A stretch of 32,000 nt of DNA, from NCBI GenBank assembly GCA_029269845.2, contig CP149973.1:480001-512000 (forward strand), read 5' to 3'. This DNA is from Opitutia bacterium KCR 482. Lineage in GTDB: Bacteria; Verrucomicrobiota; Verrucomicrobiia; Opitutales; Intestinicryptomonadaceae. This document shows, in pieces, positions 4,914-27,410 of the stretch (position 1 is its first letter; each line of letters opens with the position of its first letter). The notes under the pieces are model-generated. The model saw only the letters and a list, made by a program, of their open reading frames with translations, was not told the DNA's origin and ran no database searches. The position numbers were made by a program, and so were the translations under genes.

Positions 4914-4990
4914 GGGCGATTAGCTCAGTTGGTTAGAGCGTCTGTCTTACACACAGAATGTCGCAGGTTCGAGTCCTACATCGCCCACCA
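4914..4990 (+). tRNA. tRNA-Val (anticodon UAC), CCA encoded
   Basis: Acceptor stem gggcgat (4914-4920) pairs with atcgccc (4980-4986). D-arm is tagctcagttggttaga. Anticodon stem-loop is tctgt-cttacac-acaga with TAC at 4948-4950. T-arm is gcaggttcgagtcctgc-like. Discriminator is A, followed by CCA (4988-4990). Confidence 0.93.
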
Positions 4991-16359: not shown

Positions 16360-17397
16360 TTACAGCGACTCCGTCGAAAGGAAACGCCTGTCGACAGCCT
16401 GCGCCCCCACAATCACGCTTGTGCCGAATATCTCGTTGACCGACGCCCCGCGCGAAATTTCCGCAACGGGCTTTGTCAGCCCCGTAAGCACACGGCCGTA
16501 GCAGTTGACGGTGGAAACAACCTGCAACATGCTCGAGGCAATGTTGCCCGAATTGAGGTCGGGGAAAATCAGCACGTTCGCGCGGCCGGCAACGGAACTG
16601 TGGATCCCCTTCAAGTCGGCGACTTCGCGTTTGAGGGCGGCGTCTACTTGAAGCTCGCCGTCGATGTCTATTGCGATGTCGCAAGTCTTCGCCTTCTCGT
16701 GCGCGAGCGACGTCGCCGATTTTACCTTCAAAACCGAATGCTGTGTTGACGATGGCGTTTTCGAAGTATACGCAAGCATTGCAACGCGCGGAGTTTCGAG
16801 GGTGAGGTGGTTCACGAGAATCGCGGTCGTTATCGCGATGTCGCAGAGCTGCGGCTCTGTGGGTTCCGGAATTACGCCGCAATCGGCAAGGAAAAGGTCG
16901 CCGTTAATGCCAAGTTCGGGGTTTTCGGTGGAAACCACCATCAGCGAACTCGCCGTGCCGAAACCCTTTTGGAGCGGGATTATCTGCAAGACTGGGCGCA
17001 ACACGCCAGAGGTCGCGACGGTCGCGCCCGCAACCATGGCGTCGGCGCGTCCGGTCGCAAGCATGAGGGTTGCAAAATAGTTGGGTTGAAGCGCCATCGC
17101 ATTGATTTCCTGCGAATCGAAACTGCGGAACTTCGGCAAGCCGTGGAGGAGCTTCATGAGCGCAACGGAGTCGTCCGCCGAAACGGGGTCGATAATCTTG
17201 ATGCCGTCCAAACGGATGTCCAAAGACTTGGCGATGTCTTCAATCTTCTGCTTTTCGCCGATGATAATCGGCACGCCCAACTTGCGCGTTGCAAACTGGC
17301 GCGCAGCCTGAATTACGCGCGGGTCGGTGCCGTCGGGATAGACAATTCTCTTGGGGTGGTTCTGCAACCGTGCGGAAAGTTTTTTTACCAGTGCCAT
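16360..17397 (-). CDS. pta: Phosphate acetyltransferase (PTA_PTB family, short form)
   Basis: 345 aa. It shows ...RIVYPDGTDPRVIQAA..., ADAMVAGATVATSGVLRP, FLADCGVIPEPT, IDGELQVDAAL, VAGRANVLIFPDLNSGNI and KPVAEISRGAS. A phosphate butyryltransferase assignment cannot be fully excluded. Confidence 0.85.
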   Translation of the reverse strand: MALVKKLSARLQNHPKRIVYPDGTDPRVIQAARQFATRKLGVPIIIGEKQKIEDIAKSLDIRLDGIKIIDPVSADDSVALMKLLHGLPKFRSFDSQEINAMALQPNYFATLMLATGRADAMVAGATVATSGVLRPVLQIIPLQKGFGTASSLMVVSTENPELGINGDLFLADCGVIPEPTEPQLCDIAITTAILVNHLTLETPRVAMLAYTSKTPSSTQHSVLKVKSATSLAHEKAKTCDIAIDIDGELQVDAALKREVADLKGIHSSVAGRANVLIFPDLNSGNIASSMLQVVSTVNCYGRVLTGLTKPVAEISRGASVNEIFGTSVIVGAQAVDRRFLSTESL

Positions 17398-17424
17398 ATC
17401 TCTATAATTTACTTGTTTCCCCCC

Positions 17425-17454: not shown

Positions 17455-17568
17455 CCCCAAGCAGGCTGCAGCCTGCACGGCGTCGGAGCTTCGGGCGCAA
17501 GGTGCGCCTCCCTGCGGAGCTTCGCTCCTTTCTGTTATTATGCGCGGCAAGTTACTTGCCGCTTTTCT
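17455..17568 (+). ncRNA. Candidate small structured RNA (unknown family) ending in an intrinsic terminator
   Basis: There are successive hairpins on the + strand: a 16-nt perfect palindrome gcaggctgcagcctgc (17461-17476), ggcgca-agg-tgcgcc (17494-17508) and ggagc-ttc-gctcc (17516-17528). These are followed by gcggcaag-tta-cttgccgc-ttttct (17544-17568). The word ggagcttcg occurs twice. No promoter was identified, so the 5' end is a guess. Confidence 0.25.
17544..17568 (+). terminator. Plus-strand intrinsic terminator in the pta-helicase intergenic region
   Basis: 8-bp stem gcggcaag/cttgccgc, loop tta, then ttttct. The T-run exists only on the + strand, yet no + strand CDS precedes it. Confidence 0.55.
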
Positions 17569-17640
17569 CGGTTAGCCCGTATTGGCTTCGCCAATTACTG
17601 GCGTTGGGATATGCGATTATTTTTTAAGAAACTAATTTAA

Positions 17641-17736
17641 ATAGACGCGCTTTGCGCGGATAAAAAAAGTAAAAGCGAAAATCCGCAAACGCAGATTCTC
17701 CGCCTACCGACCCACCCCGCTTTTATCCCAAAACAA
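17641..17736. repeat. Structured intergenic repeat, partial/degenerate unit A0
   Basis: Hairpin ctttgcgcggat...atccgcaaac has an A-rich apical region. The tail cgcctaccgacccaccccgcttttatccca matches the tails of the other units (gaaacgccctacccaacttttatccca). Confidence 0.55.
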
Positions 17737-17894
17737 CCTAAAAATCTTTGTGCGTTAGCACTGTAATTTTAGGGGCGTTAGAGTGCCGTTCAGGCGGTGG
17801 CTTTCCCGCGATTGCGGGGTGCGTGGCGTACGCGGCTATCCGCAAACATTAGTCGGCTCGCTAAACGCCCTACCCAACTTTTATCCCAAAGCCC
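17737..17894. repeat. Structured intergenic repeat, unit A1 (subtype of B3, 3' half degenerate)
   Basis: The leader cctaaaaatctttgtgcgttagcactgtaattttaggggcgttagagtgccgttcaggcggtggctttcccgcgattgcggggtgcgtggcgtac aligns with 26655-26741. The apical loop is collapsed (gcgtacgc). The tail is ctaaacgccctacccaacttttatccc. Confidence 0.8.
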
Positions 17895-18050
17895 CCTAAA
17901 AACTTCGTGCGTTAGCACTCTAATTTTAGGGGCGTCAAAATGCCCCTATAAGAGTGGCTTTGCGAGTGGCTCAGGGTGCGTGGCGTACTGACGTACGCGA
18001 GCAGTCTGAGACACTCGTGAAACGCTCTTAGAGGGGTATTTTCACGCCCC
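17895..18050. repeat. Structured intergenic repeat, unit A2 (near-identical to B4); overlaps the helicase stop codon
   Basis: 17921-18050 matches 26808-26939 with only a handful of differences. The long hairpin spans 17943-18036 (cccctataagag ... ctcttagagggg), with an apex gcgtac-tgac-gtacgc. Confidence 0.9.
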
Positions 18051-20138
18051 GTACAGTTCGTAGGTTGAGGGGTCTATGCTTTCCAAGAAGCGGCTTGCCT
18101 GTCGCATTTCGAAATTGCCTCCCACCGCGCTTACCCTCGGGTACGAAATTATCAGCAAATCCATCGCCCGCGTCGATGCCACATAAAACAGCCTGCGCTC
18201 CTCCTCGACGTCGCCGTCGTCTATGCTGCGCTGGGTCGGGAAAAGCCCCTCCGCCGCGCCGATTACGAACACCACCGGAAACTCCAAGCCCTTTGCCTGA
18301 TGGACTGTCATCAGCCTTACGCGCCCGCCGACTTCGGACTCGCGCCCCTCGGCGTCGCTGATTTCGAGAGCCACGCTTGCGAGAAAATCGTCGAAGTCGT
18401 CGAATTTCGAGGCGTACTCGAAGAGCGCGTCGAAGTCCGCCGCGCGTTCCTCCCAGTCTTCGTAAAGGGTCTTCATGGCGTCGCGATACCAGCCGCCGCA
18501 CGCGCATTTGATGATTGCCTTGGGCGAAAAATCCGCCTCCGTCGTATTTTCGGCGGCTGGGTCGGCGGGGGCTCCGCGTTCGGACGCGTGCGCCATGTCG
18601 GCGAAAAAGTCGGTCTGGACTGGGATTTTTTCCGCGGAGTCCGCCTCGGCGTGTTTTTCGGAACGCTTTGCGAGTTCCACAAGCCCGCCGAGTTTTTCGA
18701 TGTCGGCGGCGGCGGCTTCGAACATCTGCTTTGCCGCGGCGGGGACTTTTGCGAGCACCTTTTTGTCGGAGAGAACGCGCCACTCCGGAAGCGATTTCGA
18801 CGCGGCGACTTCGCGGATTTTTTCGAAAATCTTGAACGCGGTTTTGTCGCCGATTTTCGGCATGAAGCGGCAGAAGCGCAGGAACGAAACGTTGTCCTTG
18901 GGGTTTGCGACGAATTTTATCTGCGAAACGATGTCCTTGACGTGCGCCTGTTCGAAAAATTTTACGCCGCTTGTCATCACGAACGGAATTTTTGCGTATT
19001 GGAGCTGCAACTGCAAGTCCATCGCCTGAAAGTGCGAGCGGTAGAGAACGGCGATGTCGTCGTACCCGTAGCGTCCGCCCGACTCTATCTCGGCGATTGC
19101 CCGCGCCACGTTCCGCCCCTGCGACGCGCCGTCCATTGCGGGCATTACGCGCGGCTTGAAGTTGCCGTCGCGGGCGGGAACGAGCGTTTTTTTGAACTCC
19201 TCGTCGTCAAGCTCCATGCCGTCGAGTATTTTGTTTGCAAAGTTCAGAATCTGCGGCGAGCTGCGGTAGTTGCGCTCTATCTTGTAGATGTAGGCGGCGG
19301 GATAGCGTTCGCGGAAGCGGAGAATGTTGTCGATTTCCGCGCCGCGCCAAGAGTAGATGCACTGGGCGTCGTCGCCGACCGCGCTTATGTTCCCGCGAGA
19401 GGCAAGCAGGTCGAGAATGTCGGACTGCAACTTGTTCGTATCCTGAAATTCATCGACGAGAATGTTCCCGAACCTGTCGGAATATTTTTTCAGAATGTCG
19501 GGGTTTTCGGAAAGCAGTTTGAGCCAGAGTTCGAGAAGGTCGTCGAAGTCGCAGTTGTTTGCGGCGCGTTTTTCCGCCTCGTAGGCGCGGGCTATTTCGG
19601 CGATTTGCGACGCCGGCGTTTCAATCCAGTCGAACCTGTACGCCATGGCGGTCTGGATTGTGGAGCGCGTGTTTCGCGCGTAGCTTATGATTTCGCGCAA
19701 AAGTTTTGAGCGCGGGTTGTCCTTGTTCGAAAAGAAATGCGGGTACGACTCCTCTACCGCCTTTTTTATCACTTTGTCCGAATCCTCGGTGTCCAAAATC
19801 CCGAAGTTGGGTTCAAGCCCGAGAGCGCCGCCTTCGATGCGCAAAAACCTGTTGCCTATCGAGTGGAACGTGCCGCCCCAGAACGAACGCGCGGGATAGC
19901 CCGCCAGCGACTCTATCCGCGCGAGCATTTGGTTTGCCGCCTTGTTCGTGAACGTGAGCAGAAGAATGTCGCGCGGGCGGAATCCGCATTCGGAAATTAG
20001 CCACGCCACGCGGTATGTTAGCGTGCGCGTCTTCCCCGACCCCGCCCCCGCGAGCACGAGCGCGGGACGGTCGGGCGGCGAAGTCACGGCGGCGTACTGG
20101 TCGGAATTGAGTTCGGCGTTGAAGTCGATTTTTTCCAC
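18042..20138 (-). CDS. UvrD/PcrA/Rep-family ATP-dependent DNA helicase (SF1)
   Basis: 698 aa with a GTG start at 20138 (gtggaaaaaatcgac...). Motifs are LNSDQYAAV, Walker A AGAGSGKTRT, DEFQDTN, VGDDAQCIYSWRGA, YRS and TVHQAKGLEF. The stop TGA (18042-18044) lies inside repeat unit A2. Confidence 0.93.
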   Translation of the reverse strand: MEKIDFNAELNSDQYAAVTSPPDRPALVLAGAGSGKTRTLTYRVAWLISECGFRPRDILLLTFTNKAANQMLARIESLAGYPARSFWGGTFHSIGNRFLRIEGGALGLEPNFGILDTEDSDKVIKKAVEESYPHFFSNKDNPRSKLLREIISYARNTRSTIQTAMAYRFDWIETPASQIAEIARAYEAEKRAANNCDFDDLLELWLKLLSENPDILKKYSDRFGNILVDEFQDTNKLQSDILDLLASRGNISAVGDDAQCIYSWRGAEIDNILRFRERYPAAYIYKIERNYRSSPQILNFANKILDGMELDDEEFKKTLVPARDGNFKPRVMPAMDGASQGRNVARAIAEIESGGRYGYDDIAVLYRSHFQAMDLQLQLQYAKIPFVMTSGVKFFEQAHVKDIVSQIKFVANPKDNVSFLRFCRFMPKIGDKTAFKIFEKIREVAASKSLPEWRVLSDKKVLAKVPAAAKQMFEAAAADIEKLGGLVELAKRSEKHAEADSAEKIPVQTDFFADMAHASERGAPADPAAENTTEADFSPKAIIKCACGGWYRDAMKTLYEDWEERAADFDALFEYASKFDDFDDFLASVALEISDAEGRESEVGGRVRLMTVHQAKGLEFPVVFVIGAAEGLFPTQRSIDDGDVEEERRLFYVASTRAMDLLIISYPRVSAVGGNFEMRQASRFLESIDPSTYELYGA

Positions 20139-25919: not shown

Positions 25920-26216
25920 CTACGCGTCGTCCACAACTTTGGGAACTACTATCTGGTTGTCGCGCTTGGCGGGTGCGTTCATGAGCGCGTCCTCCACGCT
26001 CATAGCCTCGCCCTCTACGTCGTCGCGCCACACGTTGTATATCGCGTGCGCGTGCGCGCTCGGCTCGACGTTCGATACGTCGATTTCCGAAAGCTTCTTG
26101 AAATATCCCAGTATCTGACCCAACTGCTTCGAATACATCTCCTTCTCGGCCTCCGTCAATTCTATACGCGCAAGCCGCGCCACATATTCGATGTCTATTT
26201 CTCCTGTATTTGCCAT
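25920..26216 (-). CDS. gatC: Asp-tRNA(Asn)/Glu-tRNA(Gln) amidotransferase subunit C
   Basis: 98 aa. IEYVARLARIELTEAEKEMYSKQLGQILGYFKKLSEIDV is the typical GatC helix-loop pattern. It is the first gene of gatCAB. Confidence 0.9.
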   Translation of the reverse strand: MANTGEIDIEYVARLARIELTEAEKEMYSKQLGQILGYFKKLSEIDVSNVEPSAHAHAIYNVWRDDVEGEAMSVEDALMNAPAKRDNQIVVPKVVDDA

Positions 26217-26296
26217 ATCTCTATAATCTCACAAATCTATCGAACGGAGACAAGAAAAATTGACACACGCCACGAGGAAAATTCAGAAGCAGAAAT

Positions 26297-26454
26297 CTAA
26301 AAAACTTCGTGCGTAAGCACTCTAATTTTAGGCGCGTTAGAGTGCCAGTATAAGGGCGGCTTTACGCGCGGCACAGGGCGCGTAGCATACTTGGCGTATG
26401 TAAGCGGTCTGGGACGCGCGCGAAACGCCCTACTACACTTTTATCAAAGAACAA
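26297..26454. repeat. Structured intergenic repeat, unit B1
   Basis: Leader ctaaaaaacttcgtgcgtaagcactctaattttaggcgcgttagagtgcc. Hairpin agtataagggcggctttacgcgcggcacag...ctgggacgcgcgcgaaacgccctactacact with an apex gcatac-ttggc-gtatgt. Tail is cttttatc. Confidence 0.85.
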
Positions 26455-26648
26455 CCTAAAAATCTTCGCGCCGTGCGCTCTAATTTTAGGGGCGTCAAAG
26501 TGCCAGTATAAGGGCGGCTTTACGCGCGACACAGGGCGCGTAGCATACTTGGCGTATGTAAGCGGTCTGGGACGCGCGCGAAACGCCCTTAGACTGGTGC
26601 TTTCACGCGCCGTGCGAAACGCCCTACCCAACTTTTATCCCAGCGCAA
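26455..26648. repeat. Structured intergenic repeat, unit B2 (near-identical hairpin to B1, plus a ~40-nt extra segment)
   Basis: 26499-26587 is nearly identical to 26341-26430. An extra segment ttagactggtgctttcacgcgccgtgcgaaacgccc (26589-26624) duplicates the gaaacgccc tail. The leader hairpin is gcgc-cgt-gcgc instead of gtgc-gtaa-gcac. Confidence 0.85.
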
Positions 26649-26807
26649 CTTAAAATCTTCCGCGCCGTGCGCTGACTTTTTAGGCGCGTCAAAGTGCCGT
26701 TCAGGCGGTGGCTTTCACGCGATTGCGGGGTGCGTGGCGTACTGGCGTACGCGAGCAGTCCGCAAGCGCGGGGAAACGCCGCATCAACGGTGCTTTGACG
26801 CGCCGTG
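26649..26807. repeat. Structured intergenic repeat, unit B3
   Basis: Hairpin 26694-26793 is gtgccgttcaggcggtggctttcacgcgattgcgg...ccgcaagcgcggggaaacgccgcatcaacggtgc, with an apex gcgtac-tggc-gtacgc. Confidence 0.85.
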
Positions 26808-26940
26808 TAATTTTAGGGGCGTCAAAATGCCCCTATAAGAGTGGCTTTGCGAGTGGCTCAGGGTGCGTGGCGTACTAAACGTACGCGAGCAGTCTGAGAC
26901 ACTCGCGAAACGCTCTTAGAGGGGCGTTTTCACGCCCCTA
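26808..26940. repeat. Structured intergenic repeat, unit B4 (near-identical to A2); overlaps the 3' end of the GNAT gene
   Basis: The hairpin spans 26830-26924. Flanking 20-mers aggggcgtcaaaatgcccct (26815-26834) and aggggcgttttcacgcccct (26920-26939) are inverted repeats matching at 18 of 20 positions. Confidence 0.9.
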
Positions 26941-27410
26941 CCGTAGAAGATGGAAGATTCTCCGGGGGAATAATAGTCGGATATTTCCGCTTCTTTCACA
27001 AAGCCCAGTTTTTCGTAGAATTTTCTTGTCGGCAAATACTGTTCCCTGCCCGACGTCTGCAACAGCAGCTTTGTTGCGCCGCGCTCAGCAACGTCGGCCA
27101 AGATTGCCTCGACAAGCCGCCGCCCTATTCCGTGCCCGCGAACCGTATTGTCAACCGCAATCCAGTCGAGATAGTAGAGCGATTCGCAGCATGCCTCGCG
27201 CTCGTACGACGCAAACCCGACCACCCTGCCGTCAAGCTCCGCGAATATGAAAATTTCGCCGCTTCCGTCGATTGCCCCGCGCAGCTCCTCTTCGGCGCAG
27301 TCGTACTCGTCGAAAACCCTGTCGAAAAAACCGCTCGATTTCATGATTTCGCGCACGCGCGGAATGTCGGCAAGCGTCGGCGTCCGCCTGATTGCAAGCT
27401 CACTTTTCAT
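26916..27410 (-). CDS. GNAT family N-acetyltransferase
   Basis: 164 aa. The acetyl-CoA motif VRGHGIGRRLVEAI and an FY..LGF motif are present. The ATG (27408-27410) overlaps the last codons of the upstream ATP-grasp gene by 11 nt. The last 8 codons lie in repeat unit B4. Confidence 0.88.
   Translation of the reverse strand: MKSELAIRRTPTLADIPRVREIMKSSGFFDRVFDEYDCAEEELRGAIDGSGEIFIFAELDGRVVGFASYEREACCESLYYLDWIAVDNTVRGHGIGRRLVEAILADVAERGATKLLLQTSGREQYLPTRKFYEKLGFVKEAEISDYYSPGESSIFYGRGVKTPL

Follow-up and report, generated by a model that had tools for sequence, protein, structure and literature searches.

The repeat units B3 and B4 lie next to each other at the right-hand end of a tandem array (positions 26650-26940) in a 32,000-nt stretch of the genome of Opitutia bacterium KCR 482 (contig CP149973.1, positions 480,001 to 512,000; hereafter the window, its forward strand being the + strand). 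Each forms a long hairpin, and the locus thus raises the question of which nucleic acid that hairpin is kept for. The initial annotation, made from the letters of the window alone, had proposed a conserved four-tier hairpin supported by compensatory changes between repeat subtypes and probably folded as + strand RNA. Our analyses bear out the hairpin and its maintenance by compensatory change, and we infer that it matters as a single-stranded nucleic acid, but most probably as DNA. The family most resembles repeated DNA of the repetitive extragenic palindromic (REP), REPIN (REP doublets folding into one hairpin) and bacterial interspersed mosaic element (BIME) type, and works like such DNA without being a demonstrated member. 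The reading that we favour on balance is that B3 and B4 are two of four units of a lineage-specific, mosaic, palindromic REP/REPIN/BIME-like repeat whose hairpin acts as single-stranded DNA in a replication-linked process.

Arrangement and fold of the repeat units

The 699-nt gap between a GNAT acetyltransferase gene and gatC holds four head-to-tail repeat units (array B):

26297..26455, + strand: unit B1; M3 linker and hairpin 26328-26440, right arm truncated after GAAACGCCCT
26456..26649, + strand: unit B2; M3 linker, full hairpin 26486-26612 and tail GCGAAACGCCCTACCCAACTTTTATCCCA
26650..26805, + strand: unit B3; M3 linker 26650-26682 and full hairpin of ~122 nt, 26683-26804
26806..26940, + strand: unit B4; M3 remnant (gtaatttt) and full hairpin 26814-26940

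A full unit consists of a ~43-nt linker, M3, which carries a 4-bp mini-hairpin, followed by an imperfect palindrome of ~125 nt in which the ends, GGCTTT/GAAACGC and the apex region GGGYGCGTRGCRTAC are conserved tiers with variable tiers in between. By direct reading of the sequence, the palindrome ends GGSGCGTCAAAGTGCC and GGTGCTTTCACGCSCC can each form a 5-6 bp stem of their own. Folded as RNA, B4 reached -89.9 kcal/mol, compared to -42.1 +/- 3.7 kcal/mol for its dinucleotide shuffles (z -12.9), and B3 reached -88.1 kcal/mol (z -8.7); for neither did any of 200 shuffles fold as well, and both hairpins are beyond chance. The coordinates and sequences quoted in the initial annotation were all correct (26850-26861 with 26894-26905, g26696-t26791, t26695-g26792 and g26385-t26401 were checked). 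Its tiers stand, but the hairpin extends further than it described, two more outer helices reaching TAGGSGCGT...ACGCSCCTA (26683-26804 in B3, 26814-26940 in B4). Nor are the remaining mismatches all purine-purine, as had been stated, given C-C at C26823-C26931 in B4 and at C26702-C26785 in B3, and one A-C in B2.

Two other kinds of repeat were considered for the array. A CRISPR-like array was rejected by inspection, the units being 134-194 nt long and without unique spacers, and a coding repeat was rejected because none of the spacings (158, 193/194 and 133/134 nt) is divisible by 3; the 89-amino-acid open reading frame (ORF) at 26362-26631 is spurious.

Copies of the element and covariation among them

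When genomes representing 185,579 species, one for each, were scanned for the exact pattern, the only one with the element was the metagenome-assembled genome (MAG) 'Opitutia bacterium UBA4654' (Verrucomicrobiota), which has it at 15 loci. Metagenome contigs yielded 22 further loci in related assemblies, mostly ENA assembly OGFM01, so that the element is multi-copy, with at least 37 loci sampled, while the viral contigs, phage and plasmid collections scanned gave zero matches. The window shares 97-99% identity with OGFM01000491 and about 95-97% with UBA4654, and GatC of exactly the window sequence occurs in hundreds of human-gut assembly blocks, on contigs of up to 774 kb. The host, a relative of UBA4654, is an uncultured Opitutia bacterium of the human gut, and the repeat family is lineage-specific.

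We aligned 41 distinct full hairpins from the window, the UBA4654 MAG and gut metagenomes, for which RNAalifold predicted 46 pairs. Standard pairs fill 97.8% of the pair cells, compared to 84.6 +/- 0.5% with the 3' partners shuffled (0/500 shuffles reached the observed value) and to only 29-52% in a control with the partners slid by 1 to 3 columns; the covariation score was 0.416 versus 0.168 in shuffles. Compensatory changes on both sides were found at 22 of the 46 pairs (an earlier 18-copy alignment had double changes in 20 of 47), and copies at least 88% identical to each other are distinguished by 15 distinct double substitutions in which a standard pair is kept on both sides. That the hairpin is kept by compensatory change, tier by tier, is thus upheld, and the signal, whose loss on adding copies was to have overturned the claim, persists at 41 copies. 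Part of the tier-at-a-time pattern can be accounted for without compensatory mutation: a conversion tract through the apex, with its endpoints in conserved tiers, replaces both arms of the inner tiers together, as seen at three loci (L002, L024 and L031). The mini-hairpin of M3, which had also been said to covary, does occur as GCGC-NNN-GCGC in 28 copies and as GTGC-NNNN-GCAC in another 28, with 2 hybrids, but these forms amount to only one covarying pair and are weak evidence by themselves.

The copies also share departures from perfect pairing. A bulged G at column 57 and an asymmetric loop of G34 C35 opposite A105 are present in 41/41 copies, a G53-G87 opposition in 39/41, and G61-G82, or A-A in one subtype, in 40/41; G-U pairs stand at 52-88 in all 41 copies and at 38-102 in 40. 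The initial annotation had allowed that its compensatory changes might reflect units generated independently as perfect palindromes. All subtypes share the bulge, the asymmetric loop and the G-G mismatches, and this origin is excluded, because fold-back genesis or arm-to-arm correction would erase asymmetries common to subtypes. At columns 61/82 (26384/26402 in B1; G26869/G26887 in B4), G-G is found in 31 copies and A-A in the 9 with a GCATAC/GTATGT apex, a both-sided switch that may represent a single event or an isosteric non-canonical pair.

Strand asymmetry of the hairpin

When the pair cells of the 41 copies are read on the + strand, 1606 are Watson-Crick, 238 G-U, 12 A-C and 30 other, which makes 97.8% standard pairs versus 85.8% on the - strand. 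Every copy (41/41) is more stable on +, with a mean of -81.3 kcal/mol versus -64.7 kcal/mol on -, and the + strand preference is hence firmer than the weak one originally proposed. DNA parameters agree with RNA parameters on the strand (B4, -52.3 on + versus -41.9 on -; B3, -53.5 versus -44.0), and the asymmetry therefore cannot tell RNA from single-stranded DNA. Five positions common to most copies account for about 170 of the 238 G-U cells; G-U is the majority state of the family at 5 positions, two of them in nearly every copy.

Regional mutation bias was rejected as the cause of the G-T oppositions. The + strand of the hairpins is G- and T-rich (skews of +0.15 and +0.13), whereas neighbouring synonymous sites on that strand are C- and A-rich once gene sense is removed. 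At codon position 3 of all confident genes in the window and the loci, C exceeds G and A exceeds T on the sense strand (-0.17 and -0.15), and this bias carries a further strand component that is correlated with repeat orientation and opposes the hairpins. Moreover, M2, a short terminator-like hairpin of the same repeat family ~100 nt from the long hairpin, has the opposite bias, being more stable on - in 19 of 23 copies.

Array orientation and the skew of flanking genes

All copies at a locus point one way. We compared the codon-3 skew of 75 flanking genes on the element's strand with that of 111 on the opposite strand, each measured on the gene's own sense strand. T/A skew was -0.325 in the former and -0.064 in the latter (p = 1.6e-20), and G/C skew -0.21 and -0.144, respectively (p = 8e-5), with the same sign of skew in 29/30 loci. 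In a model-free within-locus test, T/A skew followed the orientation in 16 of 18 independent loci (p = 0.0013), independence having been obtained by removing one member of each orthologous pair. As both groups were measured in sense orientation, the difference reflects a chromosome-level strand asymmetry of the kind left by replication, and we infer that the skew follows the direction of replication. The leading strand usually has G>C and T>A. By this rule, the element's - strand would be leading-strand sequence, and the better-folding + strand, which is the A/C-rich one by flanking skew, would be the template for leading-strand synthesis.

Turnover between strains and copies

The window holds a second array, array A, between pta-like and pcrA-like genes:

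17738..17886, + strand: unit A1, a 'half' unit in which the left arm stops at the apex GGCGTAC and an M2-like segment (GCGGCTATCCGCAAACA...) takes over
17887..18052, + strand: unit A2; M3 and full hairpin 17926-18050, 96% identical to B4

The half-unit variant of A1 recurs at many loci; that half units form an alternative conserved fold was rejected, since the M2-like segment shows no covariation with left-arm type.

At six orthologous sites of UBA4654 and OGFM01, the flanks are 93-95% identical but the terminal hairpins only 69-79%, and the sites differ in subtype and unit number. At the gatC-GNAT locus of ten gut-metagenome strains (L047-L056) whose GatC is 100% identical, the spacer measures 214, 371, 504-559 or 686-699 nt, corresponding to 1 to 4 units, and at least six array configurations are seen (compared to window positions 26217-26915). 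One of these strains (L052) carries the A1-A2 array sequence of the window at this locus, and three (L048, L053 and L056) have in the spacer a full leader, the segment that precedes most arrays, where the window has none. In three assemblies (L041, L050 and L054) the single unit present combines the left arm of B3 with the right arm of B4, such that its middle and base tiers cannot pair and only 27 of 46 pairs are Watson-Crick; L009 is an arm-swapped chimera of the same kind. Arms switch at the apex GGCGTAC, where the recurrent half units end as well. Such turnover is the behaviour of recombining repeated DNA, not of a locus-specific functional RNA.

Gene context and transcription signals

The arrays of the window are flanked by gatCAB, pcrA and pta. 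Around array B the neighbouring genes are:

25920..26216, - strand: gatC, first gene of gatCAB, downstream of array B on the - strand, with gatA and gatB next
26916..27410, - strand: GNAT acetyltransferase gene, abutting and overlapping B4 with its 3' end

Of 29 terminal hairpins for which a neighbouring ORF could be called with confidence, 28 have their right end (...CACGCSCC GT) at -22 to +41 nt relative to the stop codon of an opposite-strand gene, and the one exception abuts the 3' end of an opposite-strand tRNA gene. At L018 (about 490-600), the array ends beside a terminator and the 3' end of an opposite-strand tRNA gene. The flank beside the right end varies (TTA, TCA, CTA, TG, TA...); often TTA, TCA or CTA comes immediately after it, or the arm itself includes the stop codon. 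In the window, the stop codon of the pcrA-like gene (TCA, 18042-18044) is inside the right arm of A2 and that of the GNAT gene (TTA, 26916-26918) inside the right arm of B4, and the last few residues of both proteins are therefore encoded by the repeat. A T-box or other leader of gatCAB was rejected, as the same element is found behind unrelated genes.

Most arrays are preceded by a leader, a mosaic of small covarying hairpins, which array B lacks. In array A it comprises:

17461-17745, + strand: leader, ~285 nt; 17461-17737 up to unit A1
17544-17562, + strand: terminator-like hairpin in the leader
17646-17658, + strand: M1, in the leader
17677..17700, - strand: M2, in the leader; hairpin followed by a T run, resembling an intrinsic terminator for - strand transcripts

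The back-to-back terminator-like hairpins of the leader serve both strands. M2 with its T run lies downstream of the array on the gene strand and is optimised on that strand, and given this terminator and the gene context, the arrays are expected to be transcribed on the - strand as 3' untranslated region (3' UTR). On the + strand, no sigma-70-like promoter was found at the arrays, by a consensus that may not fully cover the host phylum, and the single -10 candidate, which lies in the leader, lacks conservation between loci. The long hairpin has a T run on neither strand, and thus does not have the form of an intrinsic terminator, nor does any + strand T run or terminator follow it. At gathering score, the only Rfam 15 match in the window was a tRNA, and at E <= 10 nothing relevant was found on the two arrays, the best match there having E = 0.46 and 19.8 bits against a gathering score of 100.

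Among the hairpins of the leader, variants include GCAGGCTGCAGCCTGC, GGAGCttcgGCTCC (12 copies) versus GGAACttcgGTTCC (15 copies), and ATTGGCttcGCCAAT versus ATTGCCnnnGGCAAT. At L012, L030 and L042, the left edge of the leader comes directly after the TAG stop codon of a convergent gene.

Comparison with known repeat families

REPINs, which are doublets of REPs, fold into long hairpins with compensatory changes and occur in tandem clusters including flanking sequence, and in Pseudomonas fluorescens SBW25 tandem REP arrays are oppositely oriented in the two chromosome halves (PMC3116915). The family described here shares much with the REPIN and REP-BIME systems of P. fluorescens SBW25 and E. 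coli (PMC3116915, PMC3333891): a high-copy, extragenic long hairpin with conserved parts and the rest compensated; ends that each fold alone as a short stem-loop; tandem clusters with flanking sequence, of up to four units and more than 700 bp; an orientation that depends on the replichore in the tandem REP arrays of SBW25 and follows a replication-type skew here; and a copy number that varies between strains. Of the features by which REPINs are recognised, inverted ends within a long compensated hairpin and an extragenic, high-copy, strain-variable occurrence near ORF 3' ends were all found. It differs in that its hairpin is longer (125 nt, 46 pairs), that the apex is among the most conserved parts and not a variable spacer, and that the unit is asymmetric, with the M3 linker and a strand-specific mismatch pattern.

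A second likeness is to the GTAG-tagged REP families of other bacteria, among them Opitutus terrae, which is from the same class, Opitutia. According to Di Nocera et al. 2013 (PMC3733652), REPs are especially abundant in this species. They are found at distances below 20 bp from ORF 3' ends, where genes converge or run in the same direction; their termini often provide the stop codon, and dimers are foldable as one large stem-loop. Those elements are 20-40 bp stem-loops with stems of 5-13 bp, and the sequence here appears unrelated to them as far as can be judged from their description.

IS200/IS605 insertion sequences (IS) and their non-autonomous derivatives (PMC3333891, PMC6006769) likewise have hairpins read on one strand and an orientation coupled to the direction of replication. 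They carry two unlike, short, subterminal hairpins and use a fixed target tetranucleotide and the lagging-strand template (PMC3333891, PMC6006769), whereas the element here is a single long palindrome with no fixed target, and its better-folding strand is apparently the other one. Among the ORFs of the fetched loci (349 kb), no IS was found.

ERIC (also called IRU) and the Correia elements of Neisseria are intergenic imperfect palindromes of ~100-155 bp that are co-transcribed with their neighbours and form long RNA hairpins; they are miniature inverted-repeat transposable elements (MITEs) with terminal inverted repeats and TA target duplications, and insert in both orientations. The present family is like them in palindrome size and intergenic site, but it has a fixed polarity and head-to-tail arrays. 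Unlike MITEs, only a minority of its copies have TA at both ends, namely where the right end runs into TAC (B4/L041, L026 and L033b); most end in ...CCGT followed by variable sequence.

Integron attC sites are imperfect palindromes of 57-141 bp at gene 3' ends in which structure is conserved over sequence; they fold as single-stranded DNA, and conserved unpaired bases set the strand used. Here, in contrast, the flanking genes are housekeeping genes and not cassettes, and the tandem units have no intervening ORFs. An attC identity was rejected, there being no RYYYAAC or GTTRRRY core sites and no inverse core on the left; GTT follows the right end in 11 of 32 terminal copies.

A proposed replication-linked DNA hairpin

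In the mechanism that we propose for the REP/REPIN/BIME-like repeat, arrays occupy the interval from a gene's stop codon to the repeat-family terminator M2, a placement by which they would be carried passively in - strand 3' UTRs. The palindrome is kept pairable on the + strand, its orientation would be fixed relative to replication, and the hairpin would act in whatever process copies, converts or retains the element, candidates being an HUH/REP-associated tyrosine transposase (RAYT)-type nuclease or replication-coupled template switching. Recombination between copies, with crossovers in the conserved tiers and the apex, shuffles tiers, makes half units and arm-swapped chimeras, and alters unit number.

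Several observations weigh against this proposal. The G/C component of the within-locus skew test was weak (13/18 loci, p = 0.10). By the flanking skew, the + strand appears to be the leading-strand template, whereas IS200/IS605-type transposition acts on the lagging-strand template (PMC3333891), which leaves a single-stranded DNA step without a known precedent that would fit exactly. The outer tags are TTAG on the left (columns 3-6, invariant) and ACGG on the right (as reverse complement, 37/41 copies) and not the GTAG of REPINs, which is found at the right end (reverse complement) in only 4 copies, among them B4/L041, L026 and L033b. No RAYT/HUH-like ORF, multicopy ORF or left arm-ORF-right arm arrangement was detected in the 349 kb of fetched loci with an HUH...Y...NP motif regular expression, all-against-all ORF comparison, a split-arm search and Pfam analysis of the two ORFs flanked by repeats, which are not transposases. 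Finally, mismatches seen in a single copy number 7 G-U, 6 A-C and 5 other and show no excess of G-U, and in this class the claimed G-T asymmetry fails. States common to at least three copies are 10 G-U, 1 A-C and 1 other; new mismatches of every kind arise, and only those benign on the + strand persist.

Other explanations of the hairpin

The alternative that survives best, though we judge it unlikely, is that the hairpin acts in the RNA of the - strand 3' UTR, as a REP-like stem-loop that shields the upstream mRNA from 3' exonucleases or aids termination; the mismatch bias of the + strand would then be incidental or serve another end, such as avoiding long perfect double-stranded RNA. Such a role in mRNA protection or termination is documented for REPs (PMC3733652), and it would fit the position of the element immediately after stop codons (28/29), the M2 hairpin and T run that come next on the same strand and are optimised on it, and the stability of the - strand hairpin, which at a mean of -64.7 kcal/mol is still very high. 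The long-lived non-Watson-Crick pairs, however, all weaken the - strand, being A-C or C-C there and G-T or G-G on +. Selection on - strand RNA should instead tolerate G-U on -, that is, A-C on +, a state confined to rare copies. Copies with swapped arms persist, and 1 to 4 units occur with unchanged flanking genes.

More doubtful is the view of the initial annotation, in which each unit would encode or form part of a structured + strand RNA, antisense to its neighbours, with selection on the RNA keeping the hairpin. It would account for wobble pairs on the + strand (238 G-U versus 12 A-C cells, with G-U the majority at 5 positions), for the very low RNA folding energies (z down to -12.9) and for the conserved switch from G-G to A-A at one non-canonical pair, of a type known from RNA motifs, and the leader of array A contains a TTACTG-N17-TATTTT match. 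Yet the strand preference is equally strong with DNA parameters, and orientation tracks the replication-type skew and not local transcription. The + strand has neither a promoter in the scan, nor a T run or terminator after the hairpin, nor an Rfam family at E <= 10; the -10 candidate of the leader is unconserved, and array B lacks the leader altogether. Subtypes and unit numbers differ between orthologous sites, and non-pairing, arm-swapped chimeras persist in several strains. The proposal that the hairpin probably folds as + strand RNA is accordingly not sustained.

We attach a similarly small probability to a hairpin read on a strand that is neither mRNA-sense nor lagging-strand template. 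This could be a hairpin in DNA, either of the leading-strand template or of the nascent lagging strand, through which a replication-coupled, RAYT-independent expansion and conversion of arrays is driven, or an antisense RNA family directed head-on to replication from many gene ends. Either version, if true, would be an undescribed kind of bacterial repeat biology.

Scarcely credible is an origin without structural selection, by a fresh perfect palindrome for each subtype or by template switching at quasi-palindromes and arm-to-arm conversion: one conversion tract through the apex can explain a whole-tier swap (L002, L024, L031) and the chimeras do show frequent recombination between copies, but the asymmetries common to subtypes (G57, G34 C35/A105, G53-G87 and the G-U pairs 52-88 and 38-102) would be erased, the 10 to 1 ratio of G-U over A-C in states of at least three copies is unexpected from symmetric correction, and 15 single-pair double substitutions separate close copies.

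Implications

A repeated DNA element can give a convincing RNA-style covariation signal, and such signals from genome scans therefore need comparison of copy number, context and strains before an RNA gene is called. The family is a clean and abundant example from a human-gut Verrucomicrobiota lineage that is widely represented in public samples. A very long hairpin with conserved bulges is combined in it with strand-specific mismatches, placement at stop codons, a terminator of its own that is optimised on the opposite strand, polarity that tracks a replication-type skew and fast change in unit number, and this combination makes the way in which REP-like repeats are copied, and the question of the strand that matters, testable in existing gut metagenomes and metatranscriptomes.

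Other observations in the window

A scan for tRNA and tmRNA genes found a single tRNA-Val(TAC) in the window, at 4914-4990, far from and unrelated to the arrays. The sequence ATTATAGAGATATG followed by GCA occurs exactly twice in the window, on the - strand at 17395-17408 and 26214-26227, compared to 0.03 occurrences expected by chance. Each ATTATAGAGATATG ends in the start codon of the gene just downstream of an array (the pta-like gene and gatC), and in the fetched loci the gatC ortholog alone has it again. The motif may represent a promoter common to the two genes or a leaderless start.

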